Source: a virus (lineage: Duplodnaviria; Heunggongvirae; Uroviricota; Caudoviricetes). Taken from it: a stretch of DNA of 43,817 bases. The notes under the pieces were generated by a model. That model worked only from the letters and a program-made list of their open reading frames with translations, searched no databases and was not told where the DNA came from. The DNA lies in IMG/VR virus record IMGVR_UViG_2558860161_000008, positions 1-43,817 of that record; one strand, 5' to 3'. Each line of letters begins with the position of its first letter. Within the stretch, counting starts at the first letter, position 1. The position numbers and the translations under genes are program-made. Of this stretch, positions 1-1,250 are shown in pieces.

Positions 1-573
1 ATGTTTTGCGAAGAAAAAGTAGCTCAAATGGCTGCATACCTACTTCTTAAGAGAGGTGGGCGCATGGCATATCTGAAATTGATGAAGCTGCTCTATCTGT
101 CTAACCGCCAGTCGATTTTGAAGCATGGCAGGATGATCGGCGAAGATAGCCTTTACTCTATGAAATTTGGACCAGTCATGTCGAATACGCTGAACTTGAT
201 TCGCGGTAAGGCTGAAGGCATTGGTGACTACTGGTACAACTTGATAGAGACGAACGGGCATAATGTATCGTTGCGTTCAGATCCGAGGGAAATGGATGCA
301 GACGAGGTCTTTGATGAATTGAGTCGTGCAGATATCCGGATTTTAGATGAAATCTATTCTCGGTATGGGCATATGAACCGATTTGATCTCGCAAATATGA
401 CGCATTTAGAAAGCGTTTGTCCAGAGTGGCACGATCCTGGCAATTCTCGTAAGCCTATAGACCTGAAAGAAATGCTGATCAGTGAGGGTAAAAGCGAGGA
501 TGAGGCTAATCGCATAATTGGCAAAATGGAAGAATCTCAGAAACTTAAGGAATTTTCTTTGCAATTATCATGA
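1..573 (+). CDS. Panacea/DUF4065-like protein (putative antitoxin); may be 5'-truncated by the window edge
   Basis: 190-aa ORF; N-terminal motif AYLKLMKLLYLSNRQ...KFGPV resembles DUF4065/Panacea (GepA/SocA-like) proteins; stop overlaps next start (ATGA). Confidence 0.55.
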   Translation: MFCEEKVAQMAAYLLLKRGGRMAYLKLMKLLYLSNRQSILKHGRMIGEDSLYSMKFGPVMSNTLNLIRGKAEGIGDYWYNLIETNGHNVSLRSDPREMDADEVFDELSRADIRILDEIYSRYGHMNRFDLANMTHLESVCPEWHDPGNSRKPIDLKEMLISEGKSEDEANRIIGKMEESQKLKEFSLQLS

Positions 574-989
574 CGGATTATCAGCCATACAGGAAAGGAA
601 CTGTGCTTGCACCAACTGGACCATGCAATCATCTTCATGTGATTTGTAATGATCCTGTTTATTACCCCGTTAACGATTGTTATTGTGTTTTAGTTGTTAA
701 TATTTCTAGTATCAAGGATGGTGTCCCCCACGATCCGTCTTGCGTCTTGAATTCTGGTGATCATCGCTTTATCAAGCATCCAAGTTATGTTGTTTACGCT
801 GAAGCTATAATTTGGCGAGTGGATAACATGGTTAGAAAGCAGCGATCGGGTGAGATTTCTGTTCATGATGATATGCCAGAAGCTACATTCAATAGAATTC
901 TGGACGGTTTTGATATCTCTGATGAAGTTACGCCAAAGAACCTTAAATTTAAAAATAAATATTGCGTATCATCTATTGATGATGAGTAA
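570..989 (+). CDS. Hypothetical protein, candidate toxin/effector partner of the Panacea-like gene
   Basis: 139-aa ORF translationally coupled to the upstream gene (4-bp ATGA overlap); AT-rich; no family recognised. Confidence 0.5.
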   Translation: MTDYQPYRKGTVLAPTGPCNHLHVICNDPVYYPVNDCYCVLVVNISSIKDGVPHDPSCVLNSGDHRFIKHPSYVVYAEAIIWRVDNMVRKQRSGEISVHDDMPEATFNRILDGFDISDEVTPKNLKFKNKYCVSSIDDE

Positions 990-1028
990 ACAACAGGAAT
1001 TGTTTCGGTATAACTTCTGGAGTTTTCT

Positions 1029-1202
1029 ATGGAAGATCAAAAAGCAACCAAGCCACAGGTTAAGTTCGACACAATGAAAGCATTCGTAGGTATGGGTGCT
1101 GCTGTTGAAGTTCTGATGAAGGCTGCTCCTAATGCGTTCACTCACGCTACTGTCTCTGGTAAAGAGCAGCAGGGTAAGCTTCGTCGTCTCAAAGCAGCAT
1201 GA
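1029..1202 (+). CDS. Small hypothetical ORF (57 aa)
   Basis: ATG at 1029 with GGAG 7 nt upstream; below the ORF-track length cutoff; followed by a hairpin terminator. Confidence 0.25.
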   Translation: MEDQKATKPQVKFDTMKAFVGMGAAVEVLMKAAPNAFTHATVSGKEQQGKLRRLKAA

Positions 1203-1221
1203 TCATAGCTGGTGCTTTTTG

Positions 1222-1250
1222 AAAACCCGCCTTCAGGCGAGTTTTTTCTT
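1222..1250. terminator. Bidirectional rho-independent terminator
   Basis: AAAACCCGCCT-tc-AGGCGAGTTTT hairpin with T-run on the plus strand and A-run reading as U-run on the minus strand; lies between convergent genes. Confidence 0.5.

Follow-up and report, generated by a model that had tools for sequence, protein, structure and literature searches.

The PanA/PanT (PanAT) systems have been defined, and their toxin clusters numbered, by Kurata et al. (2022, PNAS; PMC8832971), and the cluster designated T6 includes the Pseudomonas moraviensis pair composed of PanA WP_083354365.1 and PanT WP_083201923.1. The PanT of this pair has been demonstrated to be toxic in Escherichia coli, to be rescued by PanA and to form a complex with PanA in pull-down experiments, and its specific effect, as followed by 35S-Met incorporation, is inhibition of protein synthesis and not of DNA or RNA synthesis (PMC8832971). 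HHpred matched the T6 toxin to EndoA/PemK/MazF, and the T6 rows of Dataset S1 of the same work comprise Pantoea septica LMG 5345 and 'Yersiniaceae bacterium 2016Iso4' (both in the order A|T, with overlaps of -4 and -1, respectively), as well as Proteus vulgaris, Pluralibacter gergoviae and Photorhabdus, while some T6 members in Pasteurellales are labelled 'terminase' (PMC8832971). The present analysis concerns two overlapping open reading frames (ORFs), ORF1 (panA, positions 1..573) and ORF2 (panT, 570..989), which lie on the plus strand at one end of an E. coli prophage region of 43,817 nucleotides (nt) (IMG/VR record IMGVR_UViG_2558860161_000008), hereafter the window, whose positions serve as coordinates throughout. 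The interpretation preferred here, to which a probability of about 0.8 is attached, is that positions 1..989 constitute a bicistronic type II toxin-antitoxin (TA) module of the PanAT class with a toxin of cluster T6. The locus is an E. coli, prophage-borne addition to a known and validated family and no new kind of system, and the description of it as undescribed in the initial annotation, made from the sequence without database searches, was overstated, as the pair falls within a known cluster with an experimentally validated member in P. moraviensis.

ORF1 encodes a protein of 190 amino acids (aa) from an ATG start and matches the Pfam family PF13274 (SocA_Panacea) over residues 27-137 (E 2.2e-19; 70.9 bits, cut-off 25.7), which confirms the Panacea/DUF4065-like character proposed in the initial annotation. 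It corresponds to WP_000458584.1, a RefSeq 'Panacea domain-containing protein' with an identical start and a gene length of 573 nt; it carries no extra N-terminal domain, and as a stand-alone Panacea (DUF4065) protein it is the putative antitoxin of the pair. The N-terminal pattern M-F-x-E-x-K-V-A-Q is kept in homologues, and a GAGG motif is situated about 8 nt 5' of the ATG in an E. coli genome that is 100% identical to the window over 1..1300. The same genome answers the question, raised earlier, of whether the gene continues upstream of position 1: RefSeq gives the same 573-nt gene there, and truncation of ORF1 by the window edge is ruled out. The AlphaFold2 model of ORF1 (predicted local distance difference test score, pLDDT, 92.4; predicted template modelling score, pTM, 0.89) displays a compact helical/β core followed by a long C-terminal helix (residues 166-189), for which Foldseek returned no significant match in the PDB. 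The founding Panacea antitoxin, SocA of the type VI TA system SocAB from Caulobacter, shares PF13274 with ORF1, but ORF1 scores 14.4 bits against the SocA equivalog NF047745 (NCBIfam), below its cut-off of 190. In that system SocA acts as a ClpXP adaptor, and the DNA clamp is the target of SocB, an unrelated toxin.

ORF2 is the putative toxin gene, and its ATG overlaps the TGA of ORF1 within an ATGA at 570..573 (-4), precisely as had been read from the sequence. In RefSeq the protein (WP_014640052.1) begins at GTG 603 and counts 128 aa, and in the annotation of phage Lys8385Vzw it begins at ATG 570 and counts 139 aa. The segment MTxYxPYRKGT, located 5' of GTG 603, is conserved in 35 homologues, with P6 in at least 90% of them and G10 invariant, and, because of this conservation and of the ATGA overlap with panA, ATG 570 is the better start; the GTG-603 start in E. 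coli genomes is probably a systematic mis-annotation. Searches with ORF2 gave no match in Pfam, NCBIfam, PADLOC or the sequences of the PDB (phmmer, and for the PDB also a 47-sequence profile), its one match being phrog_19071, a family of unassigned function; matches to ICMT and DapC in the sequence searches were at chance level and were dismissed. On the other hand, when 1.84 billion cluster representatives were searched with a profile, 2,702 relatives were retrieved at E<=1e-3, of which 926 reach E<=1e-10. The AlphaFold2 model of ORF2 (pLDDT 89.8, pTM 0.83) adopts the CcdB/MazF SH3-like barrel fold, and the first 45 PDB matches obtained with it by Foldseek are all MazF toxins, the single kind of strong structural neighbour. 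Judged from this model, ORF2 is a protein of the CcdB/MazF superfamily that is too divergent for sequence profiles; thus, the protein that the initial annotation could not assign and considered a possible new toxin belongs instead to a large family of MazF/Kid/CcdB fold matching PanT cluster T6.

Several lines of evidence connect the E. coli pair to this cluster. Homologues of ORF2 with 55-56% identity were found in Pantoea septica LMG 5345 (overlap -4) and Chimaeribacter coloradensis 2016-Iso4 (overlap -1), and both the strains and the overlaps are those entered under T6 in Dataset S1, where 2016-Iso4 stands as the Yersiniaceae bacterium. Moreover, a profile search with the PanA alignment led to a Pseudomonas PanA, 42% identical to ORF1, that starts with MIFSEQKVAQ, the decapeptide with which, according to Kurata et al., P. 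moraviensis PanA truly begins (PMC8832971); the gene that follows this Pseudomonas panA, with an overlap of -1, encodes a product 43% identical to ORF2 (E 1e-32). This link was made via the PanA side, since the toxin alignment, used as a profile against the named protein database, gave no Pseudomonas entry, and the one-pattern scan for ORF2 loci did not reach P. moraviensis. The RefSeq accessions of the window pair are absent from the supplements of Kurata et al. and, because Dataset S1 has no E. coli row in T6, the E. coli pair is a new T6 member and not the re-discovery of a listed one (PMC8832971); a 2026 survey of TA systems in Photorhabdus does not mention Panacea. Like the T6 pair of P. 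moraviensis, the window pair consists of a stand-alone Panacea gene in first position and a toxin gene in second position with an overlap of -1 or -4, its toxin has no domain-database match and is MazF/PemK-like at the level of fold or HHpred, and the family members are common to Pantoea, Proteus, Pluralibacter, Photorhabdus and Yersiniaceae. It differs in residing in E. coli and in being borne by a dusA-integrating lambdoid prophage, whereas the P. moraviensis pair is flagged 'NotPhage'.

Other systems with toxins of related fold differ from the window pair in several respects. In contrast to MazEF and Kis-Kid (PemIK), whose antitoxins are MazE or Kis proteins of the AbrB/ribbon-helix-helix type, the window pair has Panacea as its antitoxin and displays no sequence-profile similarity to these systems; furthermore, the β1-β2 loop of ORF2 is very short, and the T6 family possesses its own invariant His/Asp/Cys/His set, with a Leu apparently in place of the catalytic Arg. 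The structural scores of CcdB (CcdAB of the F plasmid) and of ToxN/CptN/AbiQ against ORF2 are below those of MazF and Kid, in the case of CcdB in each of the two fold searches. The target that CcdB poisons is gyrase, and what the T6 homologue blocks is translation. Neutralisation of the type III toxins ToxN/CptN/AbiQ depends on RNA repeats, of which none is found at the window locus, where the antitoxin is a protein.

The association of the two genes is strict. A scan limited to one genome per species yielded 26 loci with ORF2 relatives in Gamma-, Beta- and Alphaproteobacteria, and a same-strand ORF of about 185-200 aa is placed directly upstream in all 25 loci with enough upstream DNA (more than 20 species); together with that of the window, the upstream ORFs score as Panacea in 26 of 26 cases. 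The panA/panT overlap is -4 in most gammaproteobacterial loci, the others showing -1 or gaps of about 3-65 nt. Identities of PanA and of PanT to the window pair co-vary (Spearman 0.89), and such correlated divergence fits a co-evolving cognate PanA-PanT pair. The translational coupling and the toxin-antitoxin anatomy that had been proposed for ORF1 and ORF2 are in this way supported by both the ATGA overlap and the conserved pairing. The genes downstream of the pair differ between Proteus, Pseudomonas and E. coli and, because ORF3, the next gene in the window, and the genes further downstream are not conserved with the pair, the conserved neighbourhood spans at most three genes and is not a longer operon.

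As to the surroundings of the homologous pairs, the Proteus copies have an identical gene arrangement, and these pairs (loci L003-L006, about 650-3410) are located just past prophage tail-fibre genes, beside a UPF0167 or Abi_2 gene and a Peptidase_S8 gene, in a place that resembles a further accessory or defence slot at the end of a prophage. In Pseudomonas sp. TNT2022 ID357 (locus L036) about 730 nt separate the PanAT pair from a Phd/YefM-ParE pair upstream of it (1244-1772), and an integrase-like gene (3950-5098) is nearby, which suggests a small island that accumulates TA modules. Both neighbourhoods look like typical accessory or defence islands.

In E. coli, the distribution of the pair delimits the mobile unit. 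Matches to some part of 1..1300 were found in 565 genomes, 205 of which carry the whole segment at an identity of at least 97.7%, and in the remaining genomes, about 360, as well as in phage mEp460, the match begins at 1016/1019 and extends rightward only, covering ORF3 and the xis gene. Of the complete E. coli genomes, about 4% (205/5,426) accordingly carry the pair, which also occurs in phages Lys8385Vzw and SKA5. In sampled genomes and mEp460, the slot without the pair, between the dusA attachment (att) site and ORF3, is occupied by a single gene of 177 aa with no Pfam match (WP_000956557.1, which is mEp460 gp23), an allele seen in all three PanAT-less loci that were inspected (L033 2284-2817, L034 2281-2814 and L035 2284-2817). 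The slot beside attL thus has at least two alleles, the PanAT pair or the 177-aa gene. ORF3 and xis are maintained at 97-98% identity in mEp460 and in the approximately 360 pair-less genomes, whatever the upstream cargo and, because they occur without the pair and the breakpoint at 1016-1019 is sharp, the mobile unit is the two-gene pair (1..~1015), with its right boundary within 990..1018. ORF3 and the hairpin behind it belong to the phage backbone and not to the cassette, and the larger cassette drawn in the initial annotation, closed by ORF3 and a terminator, is consequently reduced to two genes.

ORF3 (1029..1202, plus strand, 57 aa) is a member of phrog_2741 and is preceded at 7 nt by the GGAG that had been named as its ribosome-binding site. 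A hairpin flanked by an A-run and a T-run occupies positions ~1221..1246, where ORF3 converges on xis, and is common to both genes. A bidirectional terminator had been placed at 1222..1250, and of this claim the folding on both strands holds (-12.4 kcal/mol, z -1.2, on the plus strand; -15.1 kcal/mol, z -3.3, on the minus strand), but the consensus terminator scan did not call the hairpin at 1221-1246. It is likely a shared bidirectional terminator for the rightward transcript and for xis. Within 989-1221 there is no other hairpin or terminator and, because none separates ORF2 from ORF3, transcription of panAT probably continues across ORF3 as far as the shared hairpin. A consensus scan upstream of panA revealed a single promoter-like site, which is not above chance.

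From the validated homologue it may be proposed that PanA is made first and binds and neutralises PanT, the translation of which would be coupled to that of PanA through the ATGA overlap, and that free PanT would arrest growth by blocking protein synthesis, as its P. moraviensis homologue does. The weakest step of this scheme is the mechanism of PanT, most probably RNA cleavage, which is deduced from the MazF/Kid-type fold; the block of translation by the homologue bears on endoribonuclease activity only indirectly. More speculatively, the pair could represent an AT-rich moron in a two-allele slot near attL of a dusA-integrating lambdoid prophage, and its benefit might be defence of the lysogen through abortive infection or exclusion, or prophage retention. 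Within this interpretation the anatomy of the genes, the assignment of domain and fold, the strict pairing with its co-divergence, the T6 homology and the cargo status were obtained directly, and the TA behaviour of the E. coli pair itself is putative, being inferred by homology.

A number of observations weigh against the assignment of the window pair as a functional T6 PanAT module of MazF type. The link to the validated WP_083201923.1, although very well supported, runs via a near relative and via strain and overlap matches and not via an accession-level alignment, and of the 25 PanTs that Kurata et al. assayed in E. coli, 8 showed no toxicity and 5 were not rescued (PMC8832971). At the sequence level ORF2 bears no similarity to MazF: there is no match to Pfam PemK (PF02452) at E<=1, hmmsearch with the family profile gave 0 matches in the PDB, and hhalign of the family profile with five MazF/Kid/ChpBK/EndoA sequences returned a probability of 0.6%. 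In addition, PADLOC-DB v2 contains 0 families matching ORF1, ORF2 or ORF3 at E<=1, no phage-challenge data for T6 PanAT were found in the literature searched, and the catalytic Arg of MazF (R29) is apparently replaced by a near-invariant Leu22 in T6 PanT. The latter residue correspondence comes from a forced, low-stringency colinear alignment that is not significant and was used solely for a tentative residue register, in which H28/R29/P30 of E. coli MazF (EcMazF) stand opposite H21/L22/H23 of ORF2, and T52/T53 opposite S46/S47. Because R29 aligns with Leu22 in this sole, low-confidence register, the RNase chemistry of ORF2 is putative.

The pattern of conservation in the ORF2 family bears directly on this point and on the alternatives that concern the toxin. 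In 234 family sequences the positions H21, L22, V43, D55, C58, G63, H65, F67, S72, Y76, G113 and S117 are near-invariant, with H21, D55, C58 and H65 invariant in at least 228 of the 234, positions 46 and 47 are occupied by S/T, and ORF2 keeps every near-invariant residue. This conserved His/Asp/Cys/His set would be compatible with another arrangement for catalysis or metal binding, and ORF2 could be a gyrase poison like CcdB, act on some other non-RNA target or carry a new catalytic or metal site (H21/D55/C58/H65) on a MazF scaffold, a rather unlikely reading that would accommodate both the presence of a set which MazF does not possess and the Leu opposite R29, together with the missing sequence-profile similarity to MazF. 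However, the ranking of MazF and Kid above CcdB, the S/T pair at 46-47 that aligns with T52-T53 of MazF, and the fact that the P. moraviensis homologue hits translation and not DNA or RNA synthesis all speak against this reading, and the register from which the Leu is deduced has no statistical support. A different question is whether the same pair has been selected not for addiction but as an anti-phage abortive-infection system, with Panacea sensing a superinfecting phage and thereupon releasing or activating the toxin. Ernits et al. (2023) hypothesise a sensory Panacea domain and tie TA modules to defence systems, and the variable cargo slot at the prophage end, the Proteus homologues between tail-fibre genes and Abi_2/UPF0167/peptidase genes, and the Pseudomonas homologue beside a Phd/ParE pair and an integrase are all compatible with such a role, which is a genuine possibility, though less likely than not. 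A mobile-element location nevertheless suits addiction equally, the sensor role is itself a hypothesis while direct neutralisation is the role described for a stand-alone Panacea (Ernits et al. 2023), and there is neither a PADLOC match nor, in the literature searched, a published phage phenotype for any T6 PanAT. The two ideas can be combined into the proposal that T6 PanTs, including the E. coli copy, are not MazF-type RNases but MazF scaffolds with a rebuilt active or metal site (His21, Asp55, Cys58 and His65, with Leu for Arg), and that the pair mediates Panacea-sensed abortive infection against superinfecting phages; this proposal is unlikely and is offered tentatively, and, if true, would imply a different chemistry or target.

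That ORF2 might be a harmless phage accessory protein, inherited along with a Panacea gene, and that the pair would not behave as a TA system in E. coli, is improbable. The lack of toxicity in this host for a third of the PanTs assayed by Kurata et al. and the 'terminase' labels of some Pasteurellales members would agree with it, as would the annotation of 139-aa ORF clones in phage genomes, which is uninformative on toxicity, but the Panacea gene directly upstream in 26 of 26 cases, the overlapping frames and the co-divergence, the toxin-superfamily fold, a homologue that is a validated toxin and the intact near-invariant residues speak for a toxin. Even less credible, to the point of being very improbable, is a cassette of three genes in which ORF3 would be a further functional component: in its favour, ORF2 is followed on the same strand, at a distance of 40 nt, by ORF3 with its GGAG and without an intervening terminator, and ORF3 is probably co-transcribed, but the conservation of ORF3 (phrog_2741) and xis in mEp460 and the pair-less genomes, and the unrelated genes that follow the homologous pairs in Proteus and Pseudomonas, refute ORF3 as part of a conserved unit.

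With the pair placed in PanAT cluster T6, two genes that were 'hypothetical' or mis-started become annotatable in the 205 E. coli genomes and the two phages that carry them, and a two-allele cargo slot near attL of dusA-integrating lambdoid prophages has been identified. A native E. coli member of T6 is also convenient for experiments. The residual novelty lies in the conserved His/Asp/Cys/His set, which is not explained by the MazF paradigm, and in the role of the pair in the lysogen.

The window corresponds approximately to a single lambdoid prophage inserted in dusA. The integrase gene (41218..42315, minus strand) and dusA (42404..43441, plus strand) are at its far end, and the full E. coli genome has a duplicated 5' fragment of dusA some 250 nt to the left of window position 1; the panAT pair is therefore at the end distal from the integrase, as the initial annotation had placed it, and ORF1, ORF2, ORF3 and the hairpin are all present at the coordinates it gave, with the PrtN-like gene on the opposite strand. 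The latter is the PrtN/excisionase (xis) gene at 1250..1558 on the minus strand. In the excised phage genome of Lys8385Vzw the gene order is int - attP - panA - panT - ORF3 - xis. The AT-richness ascribed to ORF2 was also borne out, with a GC content of 38.1% in this gene and 40.9% over 1..1015 versus 50.3% for the window.

Two further regions of the prophage may be mentioned. Near its tail-fibre end, a resolvase/invertase gene (PF00239 and HTH_7) at 40042..40764 is probably a tail-fibre inversion switch of the Hin/Pin/Cin type. On the minus strand of the early-left region beside xis (1568..4019), a protein with an Rv2179c-like 3'-5' exoribonuclease fold (PF16473, E 9e-76) is encoded, and its neighbours, according to RefSeq for an identical genome, are a DUF551 protein, an Ea22-like protein and a YfdR-type 5'-deoxynucleotidase, all of them typical lambdoid accessory genes.

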